From a bacterium (GTDB taxonomy: Bacteria; SAR324; JACQKK01), in assembly GCA_965240465.1 (NCBI GenBank), contig OZ251219.1, forward strand, positions 1,280,001-1,344,000: a stretch of DNA of 64,000 nucleotides, in the 5' to 3' direction. The notes under the pieces were generated by a model that was not told the DNA's origin, ran no database searches, and was given only the letters and a program-made list of their open reading frames with translations. This document shows, piece after piece, positions 35,529-63,892 of the stretch; position 1 is the stretch's first letter; each line of letters opens with the position of its first letter. The position numbers and the translations under genes are program-made.

Positions 35529-35557
35529 TGTTTCTAAGCCCTAAAAGTGAACATTCC

Positions 35558-36134: not shown

Positions 36135-36163
36135 AAAGCGGGGGCGGGGGGCTGGCGAGCATC

Positions 36164-36192
36164 TTGACAAAGGATAGGGCTAGGCATACTTT
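36164..36192 (+). promoter_or_regulatory. Sigma70-like promoter for TPR cassette copy 2
   Basis: TTGACA-N17-TACTTT, duplicate of 31816-31844. Confidence 0.55.
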
Positions 36193-36228
36193 GTTTGTTA
36201 GGTGACTGTATTACCTCAGGAGAACAGC

Positions 36229-38049
36229 ATGGCAGAAGATAGAAGAAAGCAAGACAGCGGGGTAGAGGACAGCAACAATGTGGTAGATGCTACATATAGA
36301 AAACTTCGTGATGTTTTGTTTGGGGCAGCAGAAAAACCCAGAATCTTTGCTGTGGTAGTTTTTATCGCAGTGGCGGCGTTAGCTGCTTTTGGTGTTTCTG
36401 GAAATTGGGAGTTGGATGAGGTTCTATTGGTAGGTGTCGCATTATTGGGTGTTGGTTTGGTGATGTGTATTTTGTTGTGGTTGTTAAAAGATAAAGATAC
36501 TAGAAAGGATCTTAGGCAGAAGCTAGCAAAATTGTTAGAAACTCAAAAGGGAATAGATAAGGAAATACAAGAATTATTGAACCGAGGGATAAGCCATTAT
36601 GAAAGCCCCGAACTTAAGCTTGCCAAAAGTAGCCTTGAATTAATTCTTTTTCTGTTTGAAGAATTGGAAAATAAACCACAACAAATAGCAGATACTCTTT
36701 TGCAACTAGGGAGTCTTGAATTTTTATCTGGTAATTTCACAACAGCCAAGAAATACCTTGAAAAAGCCCTAGGCTTATTTAATAAAATCGGAGATCGTTC
36801 AAGTAAGGCAAACGCCTTGATTAACCTTGGTGACTTGGCGGTAAGGGTAGGAGATCCAAAAGCCAAGCAACGCCTTGAAAAAGCCTTGGTATTGTATCAG
36901 CAATTAAAAACCCCCTTGGGTGAGGCAAACGCCCTGCGTAGCCTTGGTAAATTGGCGATGAATGTAGGGGAGTATCCAGATGCCAAGCAATACCTTAAAG
37001 AAGCATTAGGCTTATATCAGCAATTAGAAAGCCCCTTGGGTAAGGCACATGCCTTGTCTAACCTTGGTGACTTGGCGATGAGAGAAGGAGAATATCCAGA
37101 TGCCAAGCAACACCTTACAAAAGCCTTGGGCTTGTATCAGCAAATCAGCGATCGTTTGGGTGAAGCAAACGCCTTGACTTACCTTGGTGACTTGGCGATG
37201 AGGAAAGGGGAATATCCAGACGCCAAGCAATACCTTGAAAAAGCCTTGGGCTTGTATCAGCAAGTCAGAGATCGTTTGGGTGAGGCAAACGTCTTGACTT
37301 GCCTCGGTGACTTGGCGATAAAGGTAGGGGAATATCCAGACGCCAAGCAATACCTTGAAGAATCCCTAGTTTCATGTCGGAAAATCAAATATCGCTTGGG
37401 TGAAGCAAATTCCACGAAAAGCCTTGGTGACTTGGCGATGCTTGGAGGAGACAATCAAAAAGCTAAGGATTACTCTGAAAAAGCCCTATTTTTACATCAG
37501 CAATTAAAAGACCCCTTGGGTGAGGCAAACGCCTTGCTTAGCCTTGGTAACTTGGCAAAACTAGAAGGAGAATATCCAAATGCCAAGCAATACCTTGAAA
37601 AAGCCCTAATCTTATATAAGCAATTAAAAGACCCCTTGGGTCAGGCAAACGCCTTGTTTAGCCTTGGTGAATTGGCGATGCTGGTAGGAGAATATCCAAA
37701 AGCCAAGGAATACCTTGAAAAAGCCCTAATCTTATATAAGCAATTAGAAGACTTCTCGAGTGAAGCAAACGCTCTGACTTGCCTTGGTGAATTGATGACG
37801 AATGTAGGAGAATATCCAAAAGCCAAGCAATACCTTGAAGAAGCCCTGGTTTTAAGTCGGAAAATCAAATATCGCTTGGGTGAGGCAAACGCCTTACTTC
37901 GCCTTGGTGAATTGGCGAAGAAGGAAGAATACGAATTAATAGGCAAGCCAACAGCCGAGCGATACCTTAAAGAAGCCCTAGCTATATACAAAGAAATGGG
38001 CATGTCAGATATGGTAAAGCACGCAGAGGACTTGCTTAAAGATTTATAA
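36229..38049 (+). CDS. Membrane-anchored TPR protein A2
   Basis: Paralog of A1 with a different N-terminus and more 40-aa repeats. Confidence 0.88.
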   Translation: MAEDRRKQDSGVEDSNNVVDATYRKLRDVLFGAAEKPRIFAVVVFIAVAALAAFGVSGNWELDEVLLVGVALLGVGLVMCILLWLLKDKDTRKDLRQKLAKLLETQKGIDKEIQELLNRGISHYESPELKLAKSSLELILFLFEELENKPQQIADTLLQLGSLEFLSGNFTTAKKYLEKALGLFNKIGDRSSKANALINLGDLAVRVGDPKAKQRLEKALVLYQQLKTPLGEANALRSLGKLAMNVGEYPDAKQYLKEALGLYQQLESPLGKAHALSNLGDLAMREGEYPDAKQHLTKALGLYQQISDRLGEANALTYLGDLAMRKGEYPDAKQYLEKALGLYQQVRDRLGEANVLTCLGDLAIKVGEYPDAKQYLEESLVSCRKIKYRLGEANSTKSLGDLAMLGGDNQKAKDYSEKALFLHQQLKDPLGEANALLSLGNLAKLEGEYPNAKQYLEKALILYKQLKDPLGQANALFSLGELAMLVGEYPKAKEYLEKALILYKQLEDFSSEANALTCLGELMTNVGEYPKAKQYLEEALVLSRKIKYRLGEANALLRLGELAKKEEYELIGKPTAERYLKEALAIYKEMGMSDMVKHAEDLLKDL

Positions 38050-38077
38050 ACCCCCCCTTTGAGACTTGGTAATAGCG

Positions 38078-38650
38078 ATGAATAAAAAAGAAAAGCAAGA
38101 AATTGAGGTTCAGGCAAGCACCTTGTTTGAACATGGTAAGTTGGCGATGAAGGAAGGAGAATATCCAAAAGCTAAGCAATGCCTTGAAGAAGCCCTAGCC
38201 TTGTTTAAGCAAATTAAGGATATTCATGGTGAGGCAACCACCTTGATTAGTCTTGGTTACTGTGAGTTGAGGGAAGGAAGCATAACAAAATCCAGGCAAT
38301 ACTCTGAAGAAGCCCTGGGCTTATTTAGGCAATTAGAAGACTATTCTAATGAAGCATACGCCGTGACTTTCCTTGGTGAATTGGCGATGAGGAAAGAATA
38401 CAAATTAATAGACAAGCTAACAGCCAAGCAATACCTTGAAGACTCCCTAGTTTTAAGTCGGCAAATCAAATATCGCTTGGGTGAGGCAGACGCCTTATTT
38501 TTACTTGGTGTCTTGGCGAAGAAGGAAGGATACAAATTAATAGACAAGCAAACAGCCGAGAAATACCTTAAAGAAGCCCGAGAATTATTCAAAGAAATAG
38601 GCATGTCAGATAGGGTAAAGCTCGTAGAGGACTTGCTTAGAAATTTATAA
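38078..38650 (+). CDS. Short TPR protein B2
   Basis: First ~46 codons identical to B1, then divergent repeats. Confidence 0.85.
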   Translation: MNKKEKQEIEVQASTLFEHGKLAMKEGEYPKAKQCLEEALALFKQIKDIHGEATTLISLGYCELREGSITKSRQYSEEALGLFRQLEDYSNEAYAVTFLGELAMRKEYKLIDKLTAKQYLEDSLVLSRQIKYRLGEADALFLLGVLAKKEGYKLIDKQTAEKYLKEARELFKEIGMSDRVKLVEDLLRNL

Positions 38651-38688
38651 CCCCCCATCCCCCCCCTTTTGCCTAGCGTAGCCACCCC

Positions 38689-40815
38689 CTACTCTGAGCG
38701 AGTGAGCTTATCAGCTTCGTTCTGCAGCTCTTCCAGTTCCTCCTGCCAGCCAGATGCAAGAATCGGAAACCGACACCAAGTACGAGGGTCAAGATTGTAG
38801 TCATCCACATGAAGAGACGGTGCTAAGCGTTCGCGTTTCCATTGTGAACCCCCCCAAAGCCGAAAGAATTTTGCTATCTGTTCTGCGAGCAGTCGCGGAC
38901 TAACCGATAATCTGGGCCGAACCCGTAAGTACTGCCATATCTGCAAGGGAGACATGCGATTACCTATCGCTGCTTGTAAGATGTCATCCAGTAGCGAGTA
39001 CGGCATGAGGTCGTTTTCGTCTTTTTGTGCTTGCGTCAAGGGACGGAGTTCAGCGGTGGGTGCTTGATTATTGAGGGCTGCTAAAGTTCTGCCCTGTGCC
39101 GAGGGCTTGCTGGGTTTGAAGGGAGGAGAAGTTTCCATCCATTTTAGCCATTGTCGTAGGAAGGTTTTGCTGGCACCTGCGATAGGAGCAAAACCGCAGC
39201 TGGTATCGCCATCGGTGGTGGTGTATCCGACTGCGAGTTCGCTGCGGTTGGAGGTTCCGAGCAGTAGGAAGTTCTTTATATTGGCGATCATCCAGATGCT
39301 CGGGGAGCGTACTCGGGCTTGGATGTTTTGTCGGGCGAGGTCGTCATTTTTCCAGCTGAGTTGGTACTGAAGGGCTTCTTCCACCATGGATTCATATGCA
39401 GCTACCATCGGTTGAGTGTTTAGTTCCAGATGGCAGGCCCCGATATCATCAGCGAGTTCACGTGCTATTTGGCGTGTATTTTCAGAAGAGTTAGCACTGG
39501 CTTGATAGACGGTGAGCAAAAGTTTTCTGGTTAGGGTTCGGATGTCGTTTTCAGATATCGGGGTGCTGGCGGAGGTCGGGAGTGCATGATCCAGTCCTTT
39601 TACATGAGGGAGGGTTTTTTTAATACCTGTTGGTCCTAGTTCTTGGAGTGCGAACCTAATCATTGCAGAGCATAGCATCGCCACCGAGGAGGAATCAGCT
39701 CCGCCGCTGAGGGAGATTAAACAGCCTTGGGTGCGGCTTTTGCGTAGATAATCCCAGATACCCAACGAGACGGCTTGCAGGAATTCTTCTTCTGGCGATA
39801 AATTCACCGCTTGCTTAGCTGCAACGAGTACATTATGGGCTTCATCTAGTTTTGCATGGTGCATATCGGATGGAGGGGCGGGCGGAGAGGGAGCAGGCAG
39901 ATGAGCTGGCGGGGCAACAGATACCATCAGTTTGTGTTTTTGGTTGTAGCGGGGGAGGGGTTTTGCTAGTTGGCGGAGTTTAACATCAACGCATGAGAGG
40001 TGTATAGGATGATAAGAAAAACGAGGGAGTTCAGCCAGCATAGTTCCTTGTGATGCGATCATAACTGAGCCATCGTAGAGGATGTTGCCTGCTTCATTAC
40101 CCAATAGATTGCAGTAGATGTAGATTGCTTGGGCTTGGCGAGACCCCTCCAGCACGAGGTTACGCATGGTTTCATATTTACCGAGTGCAAAGTGACTAGC
40201 ACTAGGATTAATAAGTACATCTAGTTTAGTTCCTCCATCCAGTTGCCGATTTTTACCGGTCCAGGCTTCTTCGCAGATTTCGAATCCTAATCGCAGGTCG
40301 CCTATTTGATAGCTTAGATCGCCAATGGGAATGTTTTTCAGCGGAGTTTCAAGCGAAGTTTCAAGCGGAGTTTCAAGGTTCTCACGCAGCCCCCTACGCC
40401 AAGCCGAGAACCACCTTGGCTCATAATGAACTCCATAACCAGCTAGGGTTCGTTTGGCATTCAAGCCTACCAAGTGTCCGTCCACCAACAGAGCCACCGC
40501 GTTGTACCGACTACCCTCATAGCTTATCGGCAGTCCCACTGTGACTATCAATTGCTGGCTGTGAGGAATTATTTCAAGTAGGCTCTCCCAAGCCGACTGA
40601 ATCACTGCTTGACCGTAAAAGGCATCCTCGCAGCCGTAGCCAGAAATACACAACTCTGGCAAACAGAGCAAATGCACGCCCCTCCTACGAGAGGCAGCCA
40701 TCGCAGACAGGATAGTCCGACGATTGCCCTTCCAGTCCAGGGGCGTCTGATTGAGGGCAGCCCCAGCTACCTTCAATTCGCGTGCTGTTGAGGAGCTCAA
40801 GAACGGATTCATCAC
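38689..40815 (-). CDS. nadE: Glutamine-dependent NAD+ synthetase
   Basis: PELCISGYGCED, YEPRWF, EICEE nitrilase domain; SLSGGADSS, QNIQAR.R, PTAEL, QWKRER. Confidence 0.95.
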   Translation of the reverse strand: MMNPFLSSSTARELKVAGAALNQTPLDWKGNRRTILSAMAASRRRGVHLLCLPELCISGYGCEDAFYGQAVIQSAWESLLEIIPHSQQLIVTVGLPISYEGSRYNAVALLVDGHLVGLNAKRTLAGYGVHYEPRWFSAWRRGLRENLETPLETSLETPLKNIPIGDLSYQIGDLRLGFEICEEAWTGKNRQLDGGTKLDVLINPSASHFALGKYETMRNLVLEGSRQAQAIYIYCNLLGNEAGNILYDGSVMIASQGTMLAELPRFSYHPIHLSCVDVKLRQLAKPLPRYNQKHKLMVSVAPPAHLPAPSPPAPPSDMHHAKLDEAHNVLVAAKQAVNLSPEEEFLQAVSLGIWDYLRKSRTQGCLISLSGGADSSSVAMLCSAMIRFALQELGPTGIKKTLPHVKGLDHALPTSASTPISENDIRTLTRKLLLTVYQASANSSENTRQIARELADDIGACHLELNTQPMVAAYESMVEEALQYQLSWKNDDLARQNIQARVRSPSIWMIANIKNFLLLGTSNRSELAVGYTTTDGDTSCGFAPIAGASKTFLRQWLKWMETSPPFKPSKPSAQGRTLAALNNQAPTAELRPLTQAQKDENDLMPYSLLDDILQAAIGNRMSPLQIWQYLRVRPRLSVSPRLLAEQIAKFFRLWGGSQWKRERLAPSLHVDDYNLDPRTWCRFPILASGWQEELEELQNEADKLTRSE

Positions 40816-51893: not shown

Positions 51894-52095
51894 TGGTATT
51901 GCGTCCCTTTTGTTTTGCATTTTGATGGTATTGCGTTGATGGTATTGCGTCCCTTTTGTTTTGCATTTTGATGGTATTGCGTTGATGGTATTGCGTTGAT
52001 GGTATTGCGTTGATGGTATTGCGTTGATGGTATTGCGTTGATGGTATTGCGTTGATGGTATTGCGTCCCTTTTGTTTTGCATTTTGATGGTATTG
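51891..52095. repeat. Composite tandem repeat (14-bp A unit + 18-bp B unit)
   Basis: A=tgatggtattgcgt, B=cccttttgttttgcattt; order A B A A B A7 B A'. Confidence 0.93.
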
Positions 52096-52129
52096 AGTTT
52101 TGATAGTTTGTGGGTTTATTTACGTGCAA

Positions 52130-52203
<74 letters not shown>

Positions 52204-52238
52204 ATGCAGAGTGAGAATACGATACTAGCATGACTTAG

Positions 52239-53012
52239 TTAGCGTGAAGCCAGCTTGAAGTAACGCTTTTCAGTTGGAGCATAGAGTTTGGGGTATTTTT
52301 GTTTAGCGACCTGCAGCATGGCGATAAATTTAGGAACATATTCTGCGGTTTCTTGTCGGAGACGGAGTCTGAAAAAGCTGGTGGTGTGTTGTTGTTGGAT
52401 TTTTTTAGACAGGTAGTTAGGTCCTCCATTGTAGGCTGCTAGGGCTAATTCCCAACGATAGTTAAATTCCAGCCCTAGCTGTTCCAAATAACGAGCTGCG
52501 GCCACGGTGGATTTCTTCCAGTTGAGGCGATCATCACGGTTGTGGCTGATGTGTAAGCCCATATGTCTGGCGGTCTGTGCGGTGAACTGCCACATACCGA
52601 GGGCACTTCCAGAGTTGGCATCCAGCTTAAAGGTGGATTCGAGCATGGGCAAATAGGCTAGTTCTTCTGGCAACCCCCGACGGCGGAACTCTCGCACGAT
52701 GGTAGGTAAATAGGGCTGAGCACGAACCAAAGCCTTTTTCACGGTGTTAGTACGATTGTAATAACGATGAAATTTCTGCACCAAAGCATGATTGGATTGC
52801 CACAGTAATGGATTCTTATCCTTAATCCTGCTAGTCAGCAAAGATGCTCTTATCTCGGTGGGATATACAAAAGGATTCGTACAAGAACTCAGCAACAATG
52901 CTATTAGTGAAATGCTCAGATAGTGCAACAAACTCAGATGTGAACTCCTAGCTGCACTAGCCAATTCATAGCAACTCAGGTGATAACTAGCAGGGCGTAA
53001 ATTTGACTTCAT
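52239..53012 (-). CDS. Lytic transglycosylase (SLT/MltD-like), possible lipoprotein
   Basis: LAYLPMLES, GMWQF...TAR..GL, ST.AAARYL, LALAAYNGG, ETAEYVPK; LLLSSC lipobox. Confidence 0.88.
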   Translation of the reverse strand: MKSNLRPASYHLSCYELASAARSSHLSLLHYLSISLIALLLSSCTNPFVYPTEIRASLLTSRIKDKNPLLWQSNHALVQKFHRYYNRTNTVKKALVRAQPYLPTIVREFRRRGLPEELAYLPMLESTFKLDANSGSALGMWQFTAQTARHMGLHISHNRDDRLNWKKSTVAAARYLEQLGLEFNYRWELALAAYNGGPNYLSKKIQQQHTTSFFRLRLRQETAEYVPKFIAMLQVAKQKYPKLYAPTEKRYFKLASR

Positions 53013-53143
53013 ATAATTCCCAAAACAACAATTTCCGTGCAACAACAATCTCCGTGCAACAACAATCTCCGCGCGGTAGCATCACCTACCTCGCCATATG
53101 TATTGCAATTCGGCTGCCAGAATAAGCACTAGACCTCACTTTA

Positions 53144-54058
53144 ATGCCTACTCCTGTTCAACCCGCGATAAATGCCATGATAAATGCCATCACCATCGCC
53201 AAACTGATGGAATACACACAGAAAATGGATGCAATCGCAATCCCGCGCCTCATCCTCAAGGATAAACAGCTGGAGTACCCTCTACTGATGGGCGTGATAA
53301 ACCTATCGCCCGATTCCGCTTACCGAAAAAGTATCTGCCATGATGCTCCTACTGCCATTGCCCGCGGACTCACCCTAAGCCAACAAGGAGCGTGCCTCAT
53401 AGACATCGGGGTTGAATCCACCTTAGAACATGCCAAACGAATTGACCCTCAGGAGCAAATAAAGCTCCTGCTGCCAGTAATCAAGGGATTGGTAACAGAG
53501 GGAATCTTGGTGTCCGCAGAAAGCTACCACCCTAAAGTGCTCGAAGCTGCAGCTCAAGCTGGGGCTGCTATTTTTAATCTCACTGGCACTGCCGAAGAAA
53601 ATGACGTATATCAACTGGCAGCTAAATATCAAACTGCCGTCATCCATAGCTACATCCAAGGCGAACATGTTCATAAAGTGCAAGACTTCCAATTCCAGCC
53701 CCAAATGACCCTCAAAATGCAGGCTTGGTTTCAAAAACGACTTGAAATAGCTCAAAAACAAGGGGTACAACACCACATCCTAGACCCAGGACTGGGCTTC
53801 TACTATCCCAATCTCAAGGACAGCACCCAACGAGTACATCATCAACTAAACACCTTCCTTACCAGCTGGCAACTACACTCACTAGGTTGGCCTATAATGA
53901 ACATCCTTCCTCACGCCCCAGAAGCTTTTACCGACTCCCTCCAGTCCTATGCCGAACCCTTCTTTGCCGTCTTTGCTCTCCTCGGGGGAACACATATCAT
54001 CCGCACCCACGAAGTGAAAACCGTTGCTGCCGTCCAGCAAACAATGGAAATGTATTAA
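53144..54058 (+). CDS. folP: Dihydropteroate synthase-like pterin-binding protein (divergent)
   Basis: MGVINLSPDS, GA..IDIG.EST, ILDPGLGF, IIRTHEV; no SRK motif. Confidence 0.75.
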   Translation: MPTPVQPAINAMINAITIAKLMEYTQKMDAIAIPRLILKDKQLEYPLLMGVINLSPDSAYRKSICHDAPTAIARGLTLSQQGACLIDIGVESTLEHAKRIDPQEQIKLLLPVIKGLVTEGILVSAESYHPKVLEAAAQAGAAIFNLTGTAEENDVYQLAAKYQTAVIHSYIQGEHVHKVQDFQFQPQMTLKMQAWFQKRLEIAQKQGVQHHILDPGLGFYYPNLKDSTQRVHHQLNTFLTSWQLHSLGWPIMNILPHAPEAFTDSLQSYAEPFFAVFALLGGTHIIRTHEVKTVAAVQQTMEMY

Positions 54059-54150
54059 AATGGGAAATGTATTAAAATAATTGAAATAAGTAAGATTTTA
54101 TGGTATGTACTAGCTAACTCATTAAGTAGTATATAGGAACGGAGAGTGCT

Positions 54151-54591
54151 ATGGATACGGTTTTTGTCATTGCAGATGCAATTCTTAAGATAGCCAAAGA
54201 GCAAAATAAAAAGGTTACCCCACTTCAATTATTGAAGCTGGTATATATCTCGGAAGGTTGGAGCTTGGCTTTGCGAAATAAAACGCTGTTTTCTAATCGC
54301 ATAGAGGCTTGGCAGTACGGGCCTGTTGTTCCAGACCTTTACCACAGAACGAAGAATTTTGGTGGAAACCCAATACCATACAAAGAAATGGATTATGAAG
54401 AATCTTCTCTTAGCGGGGAAGATTTTGAGTTTCAAAAGGAGGTTTATAATGCTTATCGTGATTACTCAGGTATTGAATTATCAAGCATTACACACCAGAC
54501 TGATTCGCCTTGGTACCAAGTCTACAAGCATGGTGAGTATAAATTAGAAATACCTCATCTAGAGCTCAAGAAGGCTAGAGGAGTAAAGTAG
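54151..54591 (+). CDS. Panacea/SocA (DUF4065)-family antitoxin
   Basis: TPLQLLKLVY, IEAWQYGPVVPDLY, LS.ITH..DSPW. Confidence 0.88.
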   Translation: MDTVFVIADAILKIAKEQNKKVTPLQLLKLVYISEGWSLALRNKTLFSNRIEAWQYGPVVPDLYHRTKNFGGNPIPYKEMDYEESSLSGEDFEFQKEVYNAYRDYSGIELSSITHQTDSPWYQVYKHGEYKLEIPHLELKKARGVK

Positions 54592-54596
54592 AGATA

Positions 54597-54920
54597 TTGC
54601 ATGGCATCCCAAATCCTCCAGAGAGACCGCAATTTGAATGGACAAGCGATAAGCTTGCAAATTTAGAAGGTGAATTACACGGGGAAAAAATAAAACAAGA
54701 TATTAGGATCATTTCGTTCCTTGGGTGGTTAAGGATGGTTGTTGCAGGTTTGCTGGTGGTAGTTTTTCTCGTATGGTTATTTCATTTATTAACCCCTGGA
54801 TATTGGCATTGGTTAAGCACAGAAAGTATAAGAACGTTGGAAGTAATTTTTATTAGTGTTATTTTTGGAGGATTTTTTCTCAACCCAGCTAGTAGATACT
54901 CTGATAACAGAGACGCATAA
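54597..54920 (+). CDS. Small 2-TM protein, putative partner/toxin of the Panacea protein
   Basis: Two hydrophobic helices around HLLTPGYWHWLS; 5 bp after the antitoxin; TTG start uncertain. Confidence 0.55.
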   Translation: MHGIPNPPERPQFEWTSDKLANLEGELHGEKIKQDIRIISFLGWLRMVVAGLLVVVFLVWLFHLLTPGYWHWLSTESIRTLEVIFISVIFGGFFLNPASRYSDNRDA

Positions 54921-55020
54921 AAATTTAATAAGGGCAATTTTGTAGCAGTGTCCGTAGGGTAAAACCATTTGCTAAATTTTTTTATCGCTTAGTGATTATG
55001 AAGACAAAATAGCAGAGAAA

Positions 55021-55431
55021 ATGGAAGGTGGATTTAGAAATAGTGTAGCTTTTGGTGAGCGAATTGAGTACTTGCTGGTAGGAGAAATGATTGGGGAAGG
55101 ATTGGATGTTTATCGTCCTGTGACTGATAACATGGGCATTGATGCGGTTATCAGAAGGAAGGATGGAACATTTATTGAGGTGCAAATCAAGGCTCGCTCA
55201 AAGGACGCAAAGCAAGGTACTTTATTTACCTTAAAAGCTTTCCAAGCGAGAAGAAGTTATTTCTTTATCTTTTACGCTGAGGGAATTAATACCAAGTGGA
55301 TATTTTCCTCTAAGGAACTTGACGCAGAGGCTGTGACAAATAAAACAGGAAAGCACGAAGGCAAGAGGAGCATTACACTTGGTAAAAGATTTGACAAATA
55401 CATAGCTACTAATTTTGATAGGCTAAAATAG
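55021..55431 (+). CDS. PD-(D/E)XK nuclease-like paralog 1
   Basis: E(RIE)...D.MGID...EVQIKAR; TAG replaces GAG so the EYQGG tail is lost. Confidence 0.8.
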   Translation: MEGGFRNSVAFGERIEYLLVGEMIGEGLDVYRPVTDNMGIDAVIRRKDGTFIEVQIKARSKDAKQGTLFTLKAFQARRSYFFIFYAEGINTKWIFSSKELDAEAVTNKTGKHEGKRSITLGKRFDKYIATNFDRLK

Positions 55432-55435
55432 TATC

Positions 55436-55465
55436 AGGGGGGCTAATGTTGCCCCTTATTTTTTT
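55436..55465 (+). terminator. Possible intrinsic terminator between paralogs 1 and 2 (second copy 55902-55932)
   Basis: ggggc-taatgtt-gcccc followed by T-run. Confidence 0.45.
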
Positions 55466-55486
55466 GCATAATAAAAGGAGACACAA

Positions 55487-55912
55487 ATGGCAAATCGTGA
55501 AAATAATCACGCTTTTAATGAGCGAATTAAGTGCTTTATAAAGAAGGAAATGCTTAAAGAAGGGATGGATGTTTATCTTGCCAAGGTTGAAAATGGAGAA
55601 GGTATAGTTGTCAAAAAGGAGAACAAAATACATATTGAGGTGAAAGTCCATGCTAGTTCAAAGGAGGCACAGAAAGGTTGTTCATTTGGATTTGGCTTAC
55701 AACCTTTCCCAAAGAAAAGAAATTATTTCTTTATCCTTTATGATGAAAGAACTAATACCAAGTGGATATTCTCCTCTAAGGAACTTGACGCAGAGGCTGA
55801 GACAAATAAAACAGGAAAAAACAAAGGGGAGAGAAGCATTATACTTGGTGAAAGATTTGAAAAATACATAGCTACTAATTTTGATAGGCTAAAAGAGTAT
55901 CAGGGGGGCTAA
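55487..55912 (+). CDS. PD-(D/E)XK paralog 2, catalytic motif degenerate
   Basis: GID becomes GEG and EVQIK becomes EVKVH; C-terminus conserved. Confidence 0.78.
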   Translation: MANRENNHAFNERIKCFIKKEMLKEGMDVYLAKVENGEGIVVKKENKIHIEVKVHASSKEAQKGCSFGFGLQPFPKKRNYFFILYDERTNTKWIFSSKELDAEAETNKTGKNKGERSIILGERFEKYIATNFDRLKEYQGG

Positions 55913-55953
55913 TGTTGCCCCTTATTTTTTTTGCATAATAAAAGGAGACACAA

Positions 55954-56382
55954 ATGGGAGTTAGTTTTAGAAGTAAAAAATCTTTTGGTGAGCGAATTGA
56001 GTACTGGATAGCGGGGGAAATGCTGAAAGAGGGGATGGATGTTTATCTTCCTACGGTTGATGACATGGGAATTGATATGGTTGTCAGAAGGAAGGATAAA
56101 ACATTTATTGAGGTGCAAGTTAAGGCTAGATCAGAGGACGCAAAGCAAGGTCTTTTATTTGCTGCTCTAAAACCTTTTCCAGTGAGAGAAAATTATTTCT
56201 TTATCTTTTATGCTGAAGCAGTAAATACCAAGTGGATATTTTCCTCTAAGGAACTTGACAAAGAAGCTGGGACGAATAAAACAGGAGAAAATAAAGGCAA
56301 GAGGAACATTGCTCTTGGTAAGAAATTTGACAAATACATAGCTACTAATTTTGATAGGCTAGAAGAGTACAAGGGGGGCTAA
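55954..56382 (+). CDS. PD-(D/E)XK nuclease-like paralog 3
   Basis: DDMGID...EVQVKAR; AGGAG RBS. Confidence 0.82.
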   Translation: MGVSFRSKKSFGERIEYWIAGEMLKEGMDVYLPTVDDMGIDMVVRRKDKTFIEVQVKARSEDAKQGLLFAALKPFPVRENYFFIFYAEAVNTKWIFSSKELDKEAGTNKTGENKGKRNIALGKKFDKYIATNFDRLEEYKGG

Positions 56383-56434
56383 GAAAACTGGATGAGGCAT
56401 ATTATTTTTTTTTGCATAATGAAAGGAGACACAA

Positions 56435-56860
56435 ATGGGAGTTAGTTTTAGAAGTAAAAAATCTTTTGGTGAGCGAATTGAGCACTGGATAATGGGGGAA
56501 ATGCTTAAAGAAGGGATGGATGTTTATCTTTCCACGGTTGATGACAGGGGAGTTGATATGGTTGTCAGAAATGAGAATGGAATATTTATTGAGGTGCAGA
56601 TCAAGGCTAGATCAGAGGACGCAAAGAAAGATATGTTATTTAACACTAAACCTTTCATAGCAAGAAAAAATTATTTCTTTATCTTTTATGCTGAGGGAAG
56701 AAATATCAAGTGGATATTCTCCTCTAAGGAACTTGACGCAGAGGCTGAGACAAATAAAACAGGAAAAAACAAAGGGGAGAGAAGCATTATACTTGTTGAA
56801 AGATTTGACAAATACATAGCTACTAATTTTGATAGGCTAAAAGAGTACAAGGGGGGCTAA
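56435..56860 (+). CDS. PD-(D/E)XK nuclease-like paralog 4
   Basis: DDRGVD...EVQIKAR. Confidence 0.82.
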   Translation: MGVSFRSKKSFGERIEHWIMGEMLKEGMDVYLSTVDDRGVDMVVRNENGIFIEVQIKARSEDAKKDMLFNTKPFIARKNYFFIFYAEGRNIKWIFSSKELDAEAETNKTGKNKGERSIILVERFDKYIATNFDRLKEYKGG

Positions 56861-56913
56861 GAAAACTGGATGAGGCATATTATTTTTTTATTGCATAATG
56901 AAAGGAGACACAA

Positions 56914-57339
56914 ATGGGAGTTAGTTTTAGAAGTAAAAAATCTTTCGGTGAGCGAATTGAGCACTGGATAATGGGGGAAATGCTTAAAGAAGGGATGGAT
57001 GTTTATCTTTCCACGGTTGATGACAGGGGAGTTGATATGGTTGTCAGAAATGAGAATGGAATATTTATTGAGGTGCAGATCAAGGCTAGATCAGAGGACG
57101 CAAAGAAAGATATGTTATTTAACACTAAACCTTTCATAGCAAGAAAAAATTATTTCTTTATCTTTTATGCTGAGGGAAGAAATATCAAGTGGATATTCAC
57201 CTCCAAGGAACTTGACGCAGAGGCTGAGACAAATAAAGCAGGAAAAAACAAAGGGGGGAGGTGGATTCGTCTTAGTGATAAATTTGACAAGTACACGGTT
57301 ACTAATTTTGATAGGCTAAAAGAGTACAAGGGGGGCTAA
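56914..57339 (+). CDS. PD-(D/E)XK nuclease-like paralog 5
   Basis: Identical protein to paralog 4 except in the C-terminal third. Confidence 0.82.
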   Translation: MGVSFRSKKSFGERIEHWIMGEMLKEGMDVYLSTVDDRGVDMVVRNENGIFIEVQIKARSEDAKKDMLFNTKPFIARKNYFFIFYAEGRNIKWIFTSKELDAEAETNKAGKNKGGRWIRLSDKFDKYTVTNFDRLKEYKGG

Positions 57340-57347
57340 AAATTGGA

Positions 57348-57440
57348 TGAGGCATGAACTCATGCCGAGCGAAGTAGTAGGTAAGAGTACACTACGGGGG
57401 GGGGCTTTATATTTTTTGGCATAACAAACAGGAGACACAG
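57348..57440 (+). repeat. 93-bp intercassette element (second copy 57888-57980)
   Basis: tgaggcat(g/a)aactcatgccga...ggtaagagtac..ctacgggggggg...ttttttggcataa...agga.acaca.atg. Confidence 0.88.
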
Positions 57441-57890
57441 ATGGAAGGTGATTTTAGAAGTAAAAAATCTTTTGGTGAGCGAATTGAGAGTTTCTGGCAT
57501 AATTCCCCTTTACCAGCCCTTTTTGGGTATCCCTTAGTGGCTGCTTTTATGGGGTATGGATTATTCATATTTGTTTTTGGTATTTGGGGATTATTCAATA
57601 TGTTCGAAAATTTTGGATTATGGCTAATCTTTGAGTACTTTTTTAAATTTTTAGCTGTACTTTTACTATTTTTTGGGTTCTGGGTTCATTTGGTAATTGG
57701 GGTAGTCTACTGGCTGGTAACAGAATGGAACTGGGAGATTTGGCAAGCAATTTTGTTTGTTTCTCCTTTTTCTTTTATTTGGCTTTTTTTGCTTATTTGG
57801 CTTATCGGAACAGGCTTGGCTGCTTCTTTTTCCTTGCTTGGAAGTTTATTCGGACATAAAAAAAAGGGAGACAATGAAATCAACTGGTGA
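57441..57890 (+). CDS. Multi-TM membrane protein with nuclease-derived N-terminus (copy 1)
   Basis: MEGDFRSKKSFGERIE followed by hydrophobic helices. Confidence 0.75.
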   Translation: MEGDFRSKKSFGERIESFWHNSPLPALFGYPLVAAFMGYGLFIFVFGIWGLFNMFENFGLWLIFEYFFKFLAVLLLFFGFWVHLVIGVVYWLVTEWNWEIWQAILFVSPFSFIWLFLLIWLIGTGLAASFSLLGSLFGHKKKGDNEINW

Positions 57891-57980
57891 GGTATAAACT
57901 CATGCCGAGAGAAGTGGTAGGTAAGAGTACGCTACGGGGGGGGCTTTATATTTTTTGGCATAATAAAGCAGGATACACAA

Positions 57981-58415
57981 ATGGAAGGTGGATTTAGAAA
58001 TAGTGTAGCTTTTGGTGAGCGAATTGAGAGTTTCATGCTACTTCTTTTTAGGTGTCCCTTAAAGGTTGCTGTTTGGGGGTATGGATTATTCATAGTTGTT
58101 TTTGGTATTTGGGGATTATTCAATATGTTCGAAGATTTTGGATTATGGCCAATCTTTGAGTACTTTTTTACAGGTATAGTTTCACTTTTAGTATTTTTTG
58201 GGTTCTGGTATCTTTTGATGATTGGGGTAGTCTACTGGTTCGTAACAGAATGGAACTGGGAGGTTTGGCAAGCATTTTTGTTTATTTTTCCTTTCATTCC
58301 TGTTGCTATTATTTTGCCTATTTGGCTTATCGGAACAGGCTTGGCTGCTTTTTCTTCCTTGCTTGGAAGTTTATTCGGACATAAAAAGAGGGGAGACAAT
58401 GGAATCAACTGCTGA
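57981..58415 (+). CDS. Multi-TM membrane protein with nuclease-derived N-terminus (copy 2)
   Basis: First 48 nt identical to paralog 1; remainder paralogous to 57441-57890. Confidence 0.75.
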   Translation: MEGGFRNSVAFGERIESFMLLLFRCPLKVAVWGYGLFIVVFGIWGLFNMFEDFGLWPIFEYFFTGIVSLLVFFGFWYLLMIGVVYWFVTEWNWEVWQAFLFIFPFIPVAIILPIWLIGTGLAAFSSLLGSLFGHKKRGDNGINC

Positions 58416-58426
58416 GGCATAAACTC

Positions 58427-59365
58427 ATGCCGAAACTCATGCCCAGAGAAAAAGCCAGTATTGCCTCCCCCGAAATATCCATTCCAGTGGTTTGGCAGCC
58501 AGGACACATGCAAGCCGCCAAAAAGAAGCTGTCCCAAGTGCTGAAAAGTACGGACATCGTCTTGGAACTGCGAGATGCCCGCCTCCCAGCCCTGACCTCG
58601 CCCGCTTGGTTTGAGGAAAGACTGCGACAAAAATCCCGCTTGCTCGCCTGCAACAAATCAGCTTTAGCCGATCCAGAAGTGAACCAGCAATGGTTGGAAT
58701 TCTGGAAGCAACAACAACAACCAGCCATCTTGCTTGATGCAGATTCTAAGCAAGGCTTAAAACAACTTTTTCAGGCTATTCAGTTCTTAGGAAAACCCTC
58801 GCGACAGCGTTTCCACCGACGCAATATGCAGCCTCCCGCCCTGCGAATTTTAATCATCGGGCTGCCCAATGTTGGCAAATCCACCCTGATCAATCGCTTG
58901 GGAAATAAGAAACGAACCGCAGTAGCACCGCAACCAGGGGTTACCAGAGGAATTACCTGGATCAATCTGCCTCCCAACATGCTGGTGATGGATACCCCAG
59001 GCATTTTGCCACCACGAGTAGAAAATCAACAACAATTGCTCTGGCTGGCTTGGAGCGGATGCCTCCCAGATCATACGCTCAACCTGCCTCACCTTACCGC
59101 ACTACTACTTACCTACTTGCTTGATAAACCTCAGCCCCAACTGCTCCAATGGCTAAAACCGATAATACCACCTACCCAGCCAAATTTTAGCCAAACCCAG
59201 CAATTACTCCGCGAACTATGTCAACATCGGGGCTGGCTACTACCTAAAGCCCAGCCTCATCTTCATCAGGCAGCCCAAAAATTCTTCTCCCACTTCCGAA
59301 CAGGAAAACTAGGGCGATATTCCTTCCAAAGACCTAAACATAAACCGAAAAATGAAAATATCTAG
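58427..59365 (+). CDS. rbgA: Ribosome biogenesis GTPase YlqF/RbgA
   Basis: W.PGHM, D.VLE.RDARLP, NK..LAD, GLPNVGKSTLIN, PGVT, DTPG, FRTGKLG. Confidence 0.93.
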   Translation: MPKLMPREKASIASPEISIPVVWQPGHMQAAKKKLSQVLKSTDIVLELRDARLPALTSPAWFEERLRQKSRLLACNKSALADPEVNQQWLEFWKQQQQPAILLDADSKQGLKQLFQAIQFLGKPSRQRFHRRNMQPPALRILIIGLPNVGKSTLINRLGNKKRTAVAPQPGVTRGITWINLPPNMLVMDTPGILPPRVENQQQLLWLAWSGCLPDHTLNLPHLTALLLTYLLDKPQPQLLQWLKPIIPPTQPNFSQTQQLLRELCQHRGWLLPKAQPHLHQAAQKFFSHFRTGKLGRYSFQRPKHKPKNENI

Positions 59366-60197
59366 CAGACGCTTACTGTTTCTAGGACTGGCAACGCTTT
59401 TCGCCTTGTTGCTATTCCTAGCCTTGGGGCGTGAGGTATATCGCGAAATCGGTGATGCTCGGCTCTCGGTGAACGCTTTGCTGCGAGTCAGCGAACCCCT
59501 GCTACACAGTGGAAAGGTGAACTTGCTACGCACCGACCGCCTAGCCATCTTCTTGGTGGATGGGCAGAAGCCTGTCGCTATGAAGATAATCTCTCCCTTG
59601 CTGCTACCTCAGGCAGTGCAAATAGGACAAAAACATGCCACCGAGCAGGCACTTGTAGAGCAATCACTTGTGGAGCAATCACTTGTGGTGCGAGAGCAAA
59701 AGGAGTACTTGCTGGTGGCTATCACTGATAAAGACGGAGATATATTTCAGCTCAGTCCTGGAGAAGCCTATGGAAGCACCACCGCGACCATCGGAGATAA
59801 GAAGGTACCTCTGCTACTGACGGAAGAATATCGGGGTGGACTTTTTAATCAAGGGTATCAATCCTTTACCATTTCTGGCGTTGCAGATACTAAACTGCCC
59901 TACCAGCCCTCGCCTGATGGTAGACTCATCGTGATGCTATTTGATACAAAACTTCAGCAACCAATCGCTTTCAGCATTACTGATAATGATCGCCTGCCCC
60001 AGCCTTTTTCAATTTCTTTGCCTCTGCAGCTGCATGATAATCACCAGCCCGCTTATCAGCTACGCATCCTGACCGATAAAAACCAGCAACCTTTTCAGTC
60101 GGCTCCAGGGGAAATCATTGGGCGTTCGGCTGAAGCTGTCCCGCTGGGGACTACCCAGCTGCAATTCTGGCTGGACATGCCTTATCGCAGAAAGTGA
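59352..60197 (+). CDS. Membrane-anchored hypothetical protein with two similar domains
   Basis: N-terminal TM; two copies of a PVA/PIA...LPQ...TDK..PGE..G pattern. Confidence 0.6.
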   Translation: MKISSRRLLFLGLATLFALLLFLALGREVYREIGDARLSVNALLRVSEPLLHSGKVNLLRTDRLAIFLVDGQKPVAMKIISPLLLPQAVQIGQKHATEQALVEQSLVEQSLVVREQKEYLLVAITDKDGDIFQLSPGEAYGSTTATIGDKKVPLLLTEEYRGGLFNQGYQSFTISGVADTKLPYQPSPDGRLIVMLFDTKLQQPIAFSITDNDRLPQPFSISLPLQLHDNHQPAYQLRILTDKNQQPFQSAPGEIIGRSAEAVPLGTTQLQFWLDMPYRRK

Positions 60198-60210
60198 GTA
60201 CGCAATGTTT

Positions 60211-60289
60211 AAGGCACTAGTAGACAAGTCACTAGTAGACAAGGCACTAGTAGACAAGTCACTAGTGACAAGGCACTAGTAGACAAGGC
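60211..60289. repeat. 15-bp intergenic tandem repeat with ACTAGT palindrome
   Basis: aag(g/t)cactagtagac x5. Confidence 0.9.
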
Positions 60290-60306
60290 AAGAGATGTCG
60301 GGATGT

Positions 60307-61755
60307 TTAGGCGATTTGCAGGGAACGCTCAACTCGCTCTGCCACTTTTGCCCTACCGAATACGGAGGCTACTTGTGCTAGGTCTGGTCCCTCTGCTTCC
60401 AAAGTGATGGCCATTCTCATGGGCATAAGCAAGGGCTTTCCTTTGAAACTGGTTTCGCTACCGACGCGGTTGATAAGCTTGTTAAATGATTCCGCATTAA
60501 ACTCTTCGGCTTCAAAATTATTGAGGTGTTTCAGCAAGCAGGTAAGCACGGTCTTGCTGATCCTATGCCCCAATATTTCAATAATTTTATCAGATGGAAG
60601 TTCTTGCTCTGGGCGGTAGAAAATGTTGAGACCTTGCTCTATATCAACGAGTTTGCTCATCTGGGGTTGAATTATAGGCACCAATTCACGAATCTCTTGC
60701 ATGTCCCGATCGCCATAGCGAGAGTGGGTAACAAAGGGAATCAAATAATGCCAGAGAGCTTCTTTGCCTAGTTTGTCAATCCAGATCTTATTAATCCAAC
60801 CAAGCTTTTCAGAGTTGAACTTGGCTGGTGATTTACCAATCCTCTTCACATCAAAGATGGATTCCAAATCCGAGACAGAAAACACCTCCTCTTCGTTACC
60901 AGGATTCCAACCCAAAAGAGCTAGAAAATTAATCAAAGCCTGCGGCAAATAACCCTTACGAGCAAAATCTCCCACAGTGAAATCACCTCCGCGTTTACTC
61001 ATCTTACTTCTATCGGGATTGAGTATCAACGGCAAATGTGCAAACTGAGGAGGAACTATATCCAGCCAGCGACACAGCAAAATATACTTCGGAATAGATG
61101 GCAACCATTCCTCCCCTCTTAATACGTGAGAAATCTCCATGAGACTGTCATCCATCACCGCAGCTAAATGATAAGTAGGATAACCATCCGTCTTCATAAT
61201 AACCTGATCCTCTTGCTGCTTAAGGCTAAACTGAACCCTCCCACGAATCATGTCCTCTAAAATAACCGGACTCTCACTCTTATCCACACGCATCCTAACC
61301 ACATGAGAATATCCATCGTCATCATACTTCTGACGCTGCTTATCCGTTAAATCCCGACAACGACCATCATAACCAGATTGACGTCCCAACTCCGCCCGAC
61401 GCTTACGCATCGCCTCCAACTCAGAGACAGTACAATAACACTTGTAGGCTTTATTGCGATTAAGTAACTCCTCAACCGCATCGCGATATATCCCCAAACG
61501 CTCCGACTGCCGATAAGGACCATACTCTCCTTCTTGAACAGGACTCTCATCGGGAATGATGCCCGTCCAAGCTAACTCACGCAAAATGTTCTTCTCCGCA
61601 GTGGAATCAAAACGATCTTGATCGGTATCCTCTATACGCAAAATGAAGGTGCCTCCATGCTTACGAGCAAATAGATAATTAAACAACGCCGTACGTAAAC
61701 CACCTATGTGTAGGTGACCTGTCGGACTAGGTGCAAAACGAACTCGGACATCCAT
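60307..61755 (-). CDS. gltX: Glutamate--tRNA ligase
   Basis: RFAPSPTG.LHIGG, RIEDTD, YRQSER, LRGEEW, KMSKR, anticodon domain. Confidence 0.96.
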   Translation of the reverse strand: MDVRVRFAPSPTGHLHIGGLRTALFNYLFARKHGGTFILRIEDTDQDRFDSTAEKNILRELAWTGIIPDESPVQEGEYGPYRQSERLGIYRDAVEELLNRNKAYKCYCTVSELEAMRKRRAELGRQSGYDGRCRDLTDKQRQKYDDDGYSHVVRMRVDKSESPVILEDMIRGRVQFSLKQQEDQVIMKTDGYPTYHLAAVMDDSLMEISHVLRGEEWLPSIPKYILLCRWLDIVPPQFAHLPLILNPDRSKMSKRGGDFTVGDFARKGYLPQALINFLALLGWNPGNEEEVFSVSDLESIFDVKRIGKSPAKFNSEKLGWINKIWIDKLGKEALWHYLIPFVTHSRYGDRDMQEIRELVPIIQPQMSKLVDIEQGLNIFYRPEQELPSDKIIEILGHRISKTVLTCLLKHLNNFEAEEFNAESFNKLINRVGSETSFKGKPLLMPMRMAITLEAEGPDLAQVASVFGRAKVAERVERSLQIA

Positions 61756-61972: not shown

Positions 61973-63892
61973 ATGAAAAGATTATCACTACTCTCGGCTG
62001 GTTGTATTCTGGCTTTATTTTTGGCTAGCTGCGGGGGGAGCAGTGGCGGTGGTGGAGGTGGTGGCGGTGGTGGAGGTGGTGGATCTGCCGACACCGACGG
62101 CGATGGCATCTCTGATCTTACAGACCGATGCTCCTCTAGTGCCGATGAGAAATTCGTCAGTACCCCCATGACTGACTACGATAGCGACGGTTGCAAAGAT
62201 GACGACCCTAATGGAGAAGACGATGATGACGACGATGATGGGGTCACCGATTTTGAGTCAGATGGCACCCAGAAAGACCAATGCCTCAAAGGCAGTTTAT
62301 TCACCAGCAACAGCAGCACCGACTACGATGGCGACGGTTGCAAAGATGACGACCCTGATGGAGAAGACGATGATGACGACAATGATACTGTCCCAGATGC
62401 CCAAGACACAGAATGCCCTAAAACTCCCTTTGGCTCTGCCGACTACGATTCTGACGGCTGCGAAGACAGCAAGGACACCGATGACGACGGTGACGGCAAA
62501 GACGATACTGCTGATGCCTGTCCTAGGGGTATAACTGGCATCGGAAATGACAAAGATGACGATGGCTGTAAAGATTCTGAAGACACCGATGACGACAACA
62601 ACGGTCTAATAGAAATTGCCACTGCTACCGAGCTAGACAACATCCGCTATGATCTGGACGGTAGCCACTATGATGACAATACAGGTAATCCATCTAATGC
62701 GGGCTGTCCTACTACTAATAATCCCGTAGGTTGCAAGGGCTACGAACTAGCTGGTGACATTGATCTTTCTTCCTTTGCCAACTTTGCTCCCATTGGTAGC
62801 GATAGCAATCATTTTACCGCTGTCTTAGAAGGCAATGATTATACCATCAGTAACCTAAACATTGCCACTGATTCCACCCTATACACGGGATTATTTGCGA
62901 TTTTGGGTACTGGTAGCAAGGTACAAAACTTGTCCTTTGCAGAAAGTACAACTGGTTCAGTTGCCAGTAGCAACAATAGTGGTGCTCTTTCTAATCCTAA
63001 CCGTGTAGGGGTTTTGGCAGGCAGAAATAATGGAACAATATCGGGTGTTTCTTCTGGGATATCGGTTTCTGCCAGTGTGGGTACCTTTAACTATGTGGGT
63101 GGCTTGGTAGGTCAGAATTATCTTAGTGGCACCATCCAAGATAGTTATGCCACTGGCGATGCCACTGGCAGTAATGGTAATCGGGATCGGGTGGGTGGCT
63201 TGGTAGGTTCTAATGAGAGTGGCACCATCGGTAATAGCTATGCCACTGGCGATGCCACTGACGGTAAAGATGTGGGTGGCTTGGTAGGTACTAATCTTGG
63301 CACCATCGGTAATAGCTATGCCACTGGCTCTGCCAAGGGCGGTGCTGGGGATGACTCTGTGGGTGGCTTGGTAGGTGGGAATAGAAGTGGCATTCTTGGT
63401 GGTGCCACCATCAAAAATAGTTATGCCACTGGCTCTGCCGATGGCGGTGCTGGTAATGACTCTGTCGGTGGCTTGGTGGGAGATACTAATAATCGATATG
63501 GTTCTGTAACCATCGGTAACAGTTATGCCTTAGGCAAGGTGGATGGGGGCGATGGAGCCGATGAAGTGGGACGCTTGCTTGGCAAAAAAGGTACTGGGAA
63601 TTATACAATTACCAGCAACTATTATAATAGTGAGAGTGACTTAGATAATGGCGAAACCATCCTAATCCTTGAAAACACCGAGGCGGTTGCCAAAACCCGC
63701 GATGAACTAAAAGCCTTGACTGCCAACACTACAGGCTGGAGTGCTGACGACTGGGATTTCACGGATGATTTCTACCCCAGCCTGAAGTCTTATGAAGAAG
63801 ATGCCGATGGTAACCGAGTTATCCCCAGTGAATTACTCTGTAACCAACCCACCGATTTCGTTCAGTGTCCTACGCCCCCCCTTACGCCCTAG
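61973..63892 (+). CDS. Surface lipoprotein with Gly linker, thrombospondin-type-3-like Asp/Cys repeats and GLUG repeats
   Basis: LASC lipobox; DYD.DGC.D..D.DDD repeats; VGGLVG.N..GTI.NSYATG repeats. Confidence 0.85.
   Translation: MKRLSLLSAGCILALFLASCGGSSGGGGGGGGGGGGGSADTDGDGISDLTDRCSSSADEKFVSTPMTDYDSDGCKDDDPNGEDDDDDDDGVTDFESDGTQKDQCLKGSLFTSNSSTDYDGDGCKDDDPDGEDDDDDNDTVPDAQDTECPKTPFGSADYDSDGCEDSKDTDDDGDGKDDTADACPRGITGIGNDKDDDGCKDSEDTDDDNNGLIEIATATELDNIRYDLDGSHYDDNTGNPSNAGCPTTNNPVGCKGYELAGDIDLSSFANFAPIGSDSNHFTAVLEGNDYTISNLNIATDSTLYTGLFAILGTGSKVQNLSFAESTTGSVASSNNSGALSNPNRVGVLAGRNNGTISGVSSGISVSASVGTFNYVGGLVGQNYLSGTIQDSYATGDATGSNGNRDRVGGLVGSNESGTIGNSYATGDATDGKDVGGLVGTNLGTIGNSYATGSAKGGAGDDSVGGLVGGNRSGILGGATIKNSYATGSADGGAGNDSVGGLVGDTNNRYGSVTIGNSYALGKVDGGDGADEVGRLLGKKGTGNYTITSNYYNSESDLDNGETILILENTEAVAKTRDELKALTANTTGWSADDWDFTDDFYPSLKSYEEDADGNRVIPSELLCNQPTDFVQCPTPPLTP

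Follow-up and report, generated by a model that had tools for sequence, protein, structure and literature searches.

Tandem paralogs of a predicted PD-(D/E)XK nuclease and chimeric membrane genes between folP and rbgA of a SAR324 bacterium

Nuclease paralogs and membrane genes in a low-GC island

The window analysed here, a stretch of 64,000 nucleotides from a bacterium of the SAR324 lineage (contig OZ251219.1), belongs to a genome represented by a single contig of 1,599,138 bases and estimated to be 84% complete. Between folP (53144-54058) and rbgA (58427-59365) it carries a low-GC island (34-39% guanine plus cytosine, with 48-51% on either side), in which a Panacea gene, a 107-amino-acid open reading frame (ORF), five paralogs of a predicted nuclease (N1-N5) and two hydrophobic genes (M1 and M2) all lie on the + strand (Table 1). 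The array formed by the latter seven genes holds every match of the genome to the nuclease (five) and to M (two). An initial annotation of this DNA had described seven co-oriented genes at a periodicity of about 470-540 bp, and the ORF starts (55021, 55487, 55954, 56435, 56914, 57441 and 57981) bear this out, with start-to-start spacings of 466, 467, 481, 479, 527 and 540 bases. The leader that it had read before genes 2-7 (T-run, GCATAA, AGGA and ACACA-ATG) was also recovered. Beyond the copy listed in Table 1, it is repeated at 55919, 56400, 56879, about 57405 and 57944, and its 13-base core, with one mismatch allowed, matches at genes 2-7 and at a single further site in the genome of 1.6 Mb. 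The CATAAT of the leader may serve as a -10-like element, a reading made by eye because the sigma-70 scan (5 sites versus 11.7 expected) placed none at the leaders. Terminator-like sites, which are pattern matches only, numbered five versus 2.9 +/- 1.9 in shuffled sequences. At the right boundary of the island lies a 21-base junction motif, whose recurrence before M1 and M2 suggests a duplication scar; the copy at 58413 runs into the predicted start of rbgA, and the first 8 bases of the motif are also found 3' of N3 (56393) and N4 (56871). The rbgA start (58413-58445) contains a 12-base repeat, of which the conspecific allele P0033 has one additional unit.

Table 1. Features of the island, in coordinates of the window
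Feature	Position	Strand	Remark
N1, 136-aa PD-(D/E)XK nuclease (predicted), active site intact	55021..55431	+	own upstream region, without the shared leader
N2, 141-aa paralog, catalytically dead by its residues, frame open	55487..55912	+	E16K, D41G, Q55K, K57H
N3, 142-aa nuclease (predicted), active site intact, copy chosen for folding	55954..56382	+	PF11645 27.9 bits
N4, 141-aa nuclease (predicted), active site intact	56435..56860	+	by residue comparison
N5, 141-aa nuclease (predicted), active site intact	56914..57339	+	changes relative to N4 cluster in residues 97-130
M1, 149-aa chimera: nuclease codons 1-16 (N3-N5 type) and hydrophobic helical body	57441..57890	+	
M2, 144-aa chimera: nuclease codons 1-16 (identical to N1) and paralog of the M1 body	57981..58415	+	
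Panacea (SocA-like) antitoxin gene, left end of the island	54151..54591	+	PF13274 76.5 bits, cut-off 25.7
107-aa ORF, charged N-half, hydrophobic C-half	54597..54920	+	between Panacea and N1
Shared leader: T-run, CATAAT, AGGAG ribosome-binding site, ATG	55452..55489	+	repeat family D7
Terminator-like hairpin before the T-run of the N2 leader	55437..55457	+	identical hairpin at 55903-55923
21-base junction motif	57348..57368	+	again at 57888 and 58413; repeat family D10

Fold, active site and relatives of the nuclease copies

The initial annotation had assigned five PD-(D/E)XK nucleases on the basis of an E..D-x-G-(I/V)D..EVQ(I/V)K pattern, and structure prediction supported the fold. The AlphaFold model of N3 (predicted local distance difference test score, pLDDT, 85.9) was matched to I-Ssp6803I (Z 13.3, root-mean-square deviation (rmsd) 2.8, 124 residues aligned), NhoI (Z 10.9, rmsd 3.7, 118 aligned), Hjc (Z 10.3, rmsd 2.9, 113 aligned) and Eco15I (Z 8.2, rmsd 3.7, 97 aligned); PvuII-class structures were among its structural neighbours, and Foldseek matched it to the DREN domain of SPARDA (E 1e-4), with weak DUF4365 matches. 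The residues E16, D41, Q55 and K57 (N3 numbering) are present in N1, N3, N4 and N5 and invariant in 93 of the 93 family rows, whereas N2 carries K, G, K and H at these positions. The pattern therefore stands for four of the five copies and fails for N2. DREN uses D41/Q60/K62 (PMC12205087), and BisI enzymes combine a Glu in helix 1 with a degenerate PD motif and QxK (PMC11347163), so that the active site of the array proteins reads D...QxK. By modelling, N1, N3, N4 and N5 belong to the PD-(D/E)XK superfamily with an I-Ssp6803I-like fold and are predicted nucleases, and N2 is, judging by its residues, a dead copy that is still retained. The five nuclease genes share 59-77% identity with N3. The shared 3' end EY(K/Q)GG described earlier is found in N2-N5 but not in N1, which stops five codons earlier while its DNA continues unchanged.

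Known families cover these proteins in part. Pfam PDDEXK_5 (PF11645, cut-off 26.1 bits) scored 28.8 bits for N1, 27.9 for N3, 21.2 for N4 and 21.1 for N5, with no match for N2; the matches span about 60 of the 138 positions and lie over the first 68 residues in N1 and N3. The NCBIfam search returned no nuclease family for the array proteins, and the profile search of Protein Data Bank (PDB) sequences gave no matches at E <= 10. Among characterized enzymes, I-Ssp6803I (PDB 2ost, PMC3384342) resembles the window copies in size and fold, with 19% identity to N3; unlike it, the window nucleases do not lie in an intron, and the family has no constant insertion site. NhoI and Eco15I of the BisI family (PDB 8q5n and 8q5m; PMC11347163) are likewise small proteins with a helix-1 Glu, a degenerate PD, QxK and a PvuII-like fold, but their identity to N3 in structural alignments is 10-12% and neither was matched in the PDB profile search. 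The DREN (DUF4365) domain shares the D/Q/K active site; in SPARDA it is part of an APAZ fusion that a short Argonaute activates (PMC12205087), whereas the window proteins are stand-alone ORFs of 136-142 amino acids and no Argonaute was found among the flanking genes scanned.

The family itself is widespread. The profile search yielded 994 clusters at E <= 0.001, with members of about 150 amino acids, and a genome scan confirmed 157 relatives among at least 598 candidate stretches, of which the best 80 loci, from many phyla, were kept and viewed up to 6 kb a side, or less where contigs end. In all 80 of these loci (the best 80 of at least 157 relatives) the family is present as one copy. The upstream neighbours scanned (n = 75) included HsdS in 14 cases and six further defence genes, namely DpnII (2), a ResIII helicase, GmrSD, BrxL and BsuBI; the downstream neighbours (n = 72) included EcoEI-type HsdR in six cases and N4/N6 methyltransferases in two. 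In total, the nearest neighbour was a restriction-modification (R-M), BREX or GmrSD gene in 22 of the 80 loci, so the association with defence that had been proposed for the array was borne out as a family context. The gap between hsdS and hsdR is an established slot for defence cargo in type I R-M operons, as with DarTG2 in the RRDM island (PMC12255303). Single-copy family members often occupy this slot, but no type I operon lies beside the window array. No constant partner gene, methyltransferase included, was found beside the family members of the 80 loci, and therefore the nuclease would have to spare its host without a dedicated methyltransferase, presumably because its target is modified, because its site is long or rare, or because cutting requires a trigger. 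Among the 23 longer relatives, fusions to DUF7662 (twice) and DUF7669 (once) were detected, and no modification-reader domain was found at E <= 0.05. In P0087, P0091, P0144, P0175, P0124, P0140 and P0118, the nuclease is fused to uncharacterised domains of about 100-130 amino acids (DUF7662, DUF7669 or none named), with the order swapped in one. In the accessible parts of the literature searched, neither the family nor a tandem array of it was described, although subscription papers or supplements might list it. The nuclease family is thus uncatalogued and widespread.

The closest folds, I-Ssp6803I and Hjc, together with the presence of some family members in conserved housekeeping operons, would suit a selfish homing endonuclease or a substitute Holliday-junction resolvase. 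We regard this explanation as extremely improbable: there is no sign of an intron (no Rfam match in 53900-58700), none of the 80 homologs lies inside a predicted tRNA, the insertion sites vary across hosts with no constant site in the 80 loci, and the genome has its own ruvC.

Chimeric membrane genes and proposed turnover of the array

The two membrane genes of the initial annotation are indeed hydrophobic, but they are not independent of the nucleases, as their first 16 codons are nuclease sequence. The start of M2 (57979-58028) is identical over 50 bases to 55019-55068 of N1, and the start of M1 (57452 onward) is identical over 37 bases to N3 (55965 onward) and N4 (56446 onward). Since M1 and M2 leave the nuclease sequence at the same base, a single fusion followed by duplication is indicated, and the 50- and 37-base identities imply that nuclease and membrane units still swap their 5' ends. 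The M body comprises three or more hydrophobic segments. It has no Pfam match, only the window's own two clusters were recovered among 41 candidates (lengths 79-252), and M bodies were absent from 60 relatives and from the surroundings of every other nuclease-family member. An atlas search gave a best score of 0.88, which is a lead only, and the single-sequence model (predicted template modelling score, pTM, 0.38) had no Foldseek match. From codon 17 onward, M1 and M2 differ with a proportion of non-synonymous differences (pN) of 0.158 and of synonymous differences (pS) of 0.072 (Fisher p 0.04; 0.06 for the ungapped part); their best DNA alignment contains mutually compensating gaps of 7 and 8 bases. 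These values hint that the M bodies are changing fast under selection, as judged from one pair and a simple counting method.

The retention of nuclease residues 1-16 in M1 and M2, the excess of pN over pS in their bodies and the retention of M1 on two other contigs (see below) would fit a combinatorial system, in which the nucleases form mixed oligomers, N2 has a structural or inhibitory role without cutting, and the M chimeras hold the nucleases through half of helix 1 or kill the cell. I-Ssp6803I has two DNA-binding and two structural subunits (PMC3384342), and DREN oligomerises via helix 1 (PMC12205087). However, the M bodies accompany no other family member and occur in none of the 60 relatives, the shared piece covers only half of helix 1, which spans residues 5-25 of the model, and promoter and start capture accounts for it, and the significance of the M-body difference is lost in the ungapped part with simple counting. 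We therefore hold this system to be quite improbable. Similarly doubtful is a recombination-driven generator of defence diversity, in which the leader and the 16 codons would form a 5' handle through which gene bodies of both unrelated kinds could be gained, lost and re-capped, intact copies differing in their DNA-reading strands would join in mixed dimers or tetramers of combinatorial specificity, N2 would be a kept non-cutting subunit and the fast-changing M chimeras, as new genes that arose by fusion, would tether the nucleases or back them up. A complex prediction with two N3 and two N2 chains scored 0.51, with one control at 0.45; it gave no verdict and was not used as evidence.

Identical tracts shared between the copies (89 bases between N2 and N4, 252 between N4 and N5, and 61 between N3 and N4) make the array a mosaic. 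The architecture is that of a known process, an accordion of the lpl/csa1 type: in Staphylococcus aureus (PMC2568036, PMC7360770), the lpl/csa1 loci likewise consist of head-to-tail paralogs with conserved crossover stretches and mosaic genes, and they vary in copy number within a population, as the present array may do. Their cargo consists of surface lipoproteins, whereas the array described here carries a predicted cytoplasmic nuclease, a dead copy and two membrane bodies that are unrelated to it and share only its 5' stretch.

The assembly was checked against contigs from two runs of one sample, aligned at 85% likeness; of two further runs, X3 contributed one 146-base piece (depth 2.9) and X4 nothing, and neither supplied evidence. 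All 30 bins of 52000-60500 were covered by contigs of the two runs, and among the 18 pieces listed, the unique ones of N1, N2, N3, M1 and M2 were free of differences. None of the listed pieces spans the whole array, so that the order and number of the copies are those given by the assembly. Minority joints of the deletion and duplication kinds were detected, from 58465 back to 57946 (depths 15 and 27 versus 64-137 in the flanks, unexplained by any assembly repeat), 56529 -> 57351 (a skip, depth 13, one run) and 54556 -> 54838 (a skip, depths 9 and 13, both runs). Minority letters were observed at the 5' end of N3, where one minority allele, read by eye, encodes K13 and Q14 as in P0004. These joints and letters may partly reflect paralogs or co-occurring strains. 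Other nuclease alleles (P0028, P0016 and P0004), along with nearly identical products of folP, rbgA, Panacea and M1, were found among proteins whose only contig has 58,033 or 8,681 bases; judging by the equal lengths, these proteins appear to share contigs, and they may stem from the sample already used. The conspecific N1 allele P0028 differs from N1 in six residues, four of them within 70-76. Variation in alleles and junctions, which had been anticipated for a locally expanding locus, is thus supported by these contigs.

Gene multiplication is an ordinary habit of this genome. With simple ORF calling, 17 of its 21 paralog families (>= 50% identity) contain tandem runs, adjacent paralog pairs account for 70 of 1263 called ORFs, and one family has 50 members in tandem runs of up to 16. 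The genes recA, ruvC, mutS and mutL are present, and loss of mismatch repair as a cause of the amplification was rejected given the presence of mutS and mutL. A second tandem duplication lies at 31854-40815 of the window, where a TPR-like (tetratricopeptide repeat-like) gene pair is repeated (31854-33971 and 36202-38650) with a methyltransferase gene (33990-35528) in between. There, a 139-amino-acid ORF on the - strand (35606-36025) copies the 3' end of a 708-amino-acid - strand gene (38689-40815; NAD synthetase-like, by eye), with the same pattern of a scar from the neighbour. In addition, a 639-amino-acid lipoprotein-like gene at 61973-63892 has a start resembling the 50-member tandem family, three tandem lipoprotein-like genes of 848-849 amino acids lie at G000:C1:1379667-1388432 (neighbour omega, the non-synonymous to synonymous rate ratio, about 2), and near-identical lipoprotein-like genes of 720-737 amino acids flank a folP-transglycosylase pair in the congener (G001, L101:7032-9245 and 11501-13663).

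Small, co-oriented and evenly spaced genes are likewise typical of integron cassette arrays, and the initial annotation had suspected a cassette-like system with an unseen recombinase. The regular spacing, the two kinds of gene body between common flanks and two tyrosine recombinases elsewhere in the genome would be in line with an array driven by a distant integrase. Unlike integrons, however, the locus has no IntI and no attC core site, and its units are paralogs with their own leader. The best score for an integron integrase (TIGR02249) in this genome, estimated to be 84% complete, was 33.5 bits versus a cut-off of 265. No GTTRRRY was found on the + strand of 54901-58500, and both RYYYAAC sites lie within genes (N4 and N5). 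There was no within-spacer inverted repeat among the 25 longest of the 36 listed and no Rfam match; the homology spans whole nuclease genes, and the leader is confined to the locus. With recA present and tandem arrays common in the genome, the cassette reading is largely refuted, and we consider it highly improbable.

Selection on the copies and the favoured explanation

In a FastTree phylogeny with midpoint root, the five copies group with the three alleles from other contigs in a single clade on a long branch (support 0.91). The nuclease was not found in 60 of 60 relatives, among them one congeneric single-contig genome, and the local expansion proposed initially is thus borne out by one lineage-specific clade of a family that is single-copy in the 80 loci viewed. 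In the proposed comparison of the folP-rbgA interval, no nuclease was found in the relatives, and in the congener folP and rbgA lie about 200 kb apart with no nuclease or M match, so that no empty site can be demonstrated in the only congeneric genome.

Conservation was evaluated at 70 positions (conserved in >= 80% of the family), which were divided into core and accessory ones according to the secondary structure of the model. A typical family member departs from these at 4 positions (maximum 13), the intact window copies at 16-19, and N2 at 34. All four intact copies kept 28 of the 36 core positions and 15 of the 34 accessory ones (Fisher p 0.0065). In the six pairs of intact copies, the ratio of non-synonymous to synonymous differences per site (pN/pS) was 0.35-0.50 in the core and 0.67-1.44 in the accessory segments, whereas the core values rose to 0.85-1.96 in pairs containing N2. 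The core is therefore under purifying selection, and the remainder is about neutral. Judging from the model, the accessory segments may be the DNA-reading surfaces. Of the diversifying repertoire suggested by the initial annotation, the variation of alleles and junctions stands; adaptive diversification is possible, with accessory pN/pS only near 1.

With moderate confidence, we favour a defence nuclease whose specificity drifts apart within a RecA-type accordion. Imported as a single gene, a stand-alone PD-(D/E)XK endonuclease would have been amplified by tandem duplication, and the copies reshuffled through RecA-type unequal crossing-over and gene conversion, the leader being the 5' region copied along with each unit. 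The family would act in defence with no dedicated methyltransferase, cutting foreign DNA that is recognised by its mark or by a long or rare site, possibly in a mode akin to the BisI/NhoI or I-Ssp6803I oligomers. While the cutting core is kept, the presumed DNA-reading surfaces would drift and supply the population with a variable set of specificities. A fusion after codon 16 would have placed an unrelated membrane body behind the promoter, ribosome-binding site and start of a nuclease; the chimeric gene would then have been duplicated, its common 5' stretch allowing nuclease and membrane units to recombine. N2 would be a dead copy awaiting loss.

Several observations weigh against the favoured explanation. 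The nuclease activity of the copies and any phenotype are predictions, the accessory segments are presumed reading surfaces on the basis of the fold, and PADLOC, suggested earlier as a check, gave weak and partial matches only (best E 1.3e-4). In 58 of the 80 family loci the nearest neighbour is not an R-M or BREX gene, and 11 of the 14 hsdS cases belong to one clade and three to another, which therefore represent few independent events. Single members were also observed in or beside the pheS-pheT, gatA-gatB, lysS and gltX operons of unrelated phyla (L010, L021, L041, L059, L077, L011 and L022). Conservation within the family is overstated, since its rows were chosen for their likeness to the query. 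The changes at A9, K13, H75, W120 and N122, together with a 12-16-residue loop that is present in 88 of the 93 family rows and lost from all window copies, could cripple DNA binding. Accessory pN/pS near 1 fits relaxed selection equally well as diversification, and omega of the nuclease pairs (0.53-0.75) lies at the median (0.57) of the 18 computable adjacent paralog pairs of the genome, which include four of the array itself. Finally, the minority joints and letters were read in contigs of a single sample, aligned at 85% likeness, and the shorter arm of the joints measures about 30 bases.

Many of these points are shared by a non-adaptive alternative, which we take seriously but consider rather unlikely: amplification and decay of an import attenuated by drift or so as to spare a heavily methylated host chromosome, with the cores kept alike mostly via gene conversion. 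The adjacent paralog pairs common in this genome, the dead N2, the loss of family-invariant surface residues and of the loop, an omega like that of other tandem pairs, the neighbouring Panacea gene missing part of a helix and the abundance of methyltransferases (see below) are all consistent with it. It is opposed by the low core pN/pS in all six intact pairs. The five copies also contain no frameshift or internal stop, and the three N2 indels relative to N1 are all frame-preserving, although an open frame is weak evidence, with a chance of 0.18 for 48 private changes.

The adjoining Panacea gene is present as described initially; its link to the nucleases is unsupported, with five dispersed Panacea-like matches in the genome and the 107-amino-acid ORF intervening. 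The window Panacea lacks seven residues of the last helix compared with a conspecific allele. For the 107-amino-acid ORF no homolog was found (0 of 2 candidates). Several PanT toxins act on membranes and have a charged front and a hydrophobic back (PMC8832971), and by analogy this ORF is probably a likelier Panacea partner than the nucleases. The minority joint 54556 -> 54838, seen in both runs, would delete the end of Panacea and most of this ORF.

The absence of a cognate methyltransferase noted initially holds locally, with none within 53144-60197 and the nearest match about 19.5 kb off; genome-wide, 21 N4/N6 DNA methyltransferase matches, all above the Pfam cut-off, were found in 1.6 Mb. 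Given these 21 matches, protection in trans and pressure against cutting methylated self DNA are both conceivable. Dispersed methyltransferases, one of them at 33990-35528, could shield the host from type II-like enzymes with short unmodified targets, which would then be free to change specificity. Weak matches of N3 to REase_II and NgoBV (E 0.002-0.004) and its PvuII-class structural neighbours point the same way, but the family members elsewhere have no constant methyltransferase neighbour. Strong conservation across a whole family is unlike type II enzymes and also weighs against this alternative, which we judge to be improbable.

The array itself represents a known process, and it is the uncatalogued nuclease family and the chimeric membrane genes that are the main points of this report. 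As a defence nuclease drifting apart in specificity, the locus would be a natural variant series, in which the core is kept and the presumed reading surfaces are changed, so that experiments could address a change in specificity directly. The locus also records how a chimeric membrane gene arose. The parent family, which occurs partnerless in defence loci, those of type I R-M among them, is a candidate for a new one-gene defence or a modification-dependent enzyme.

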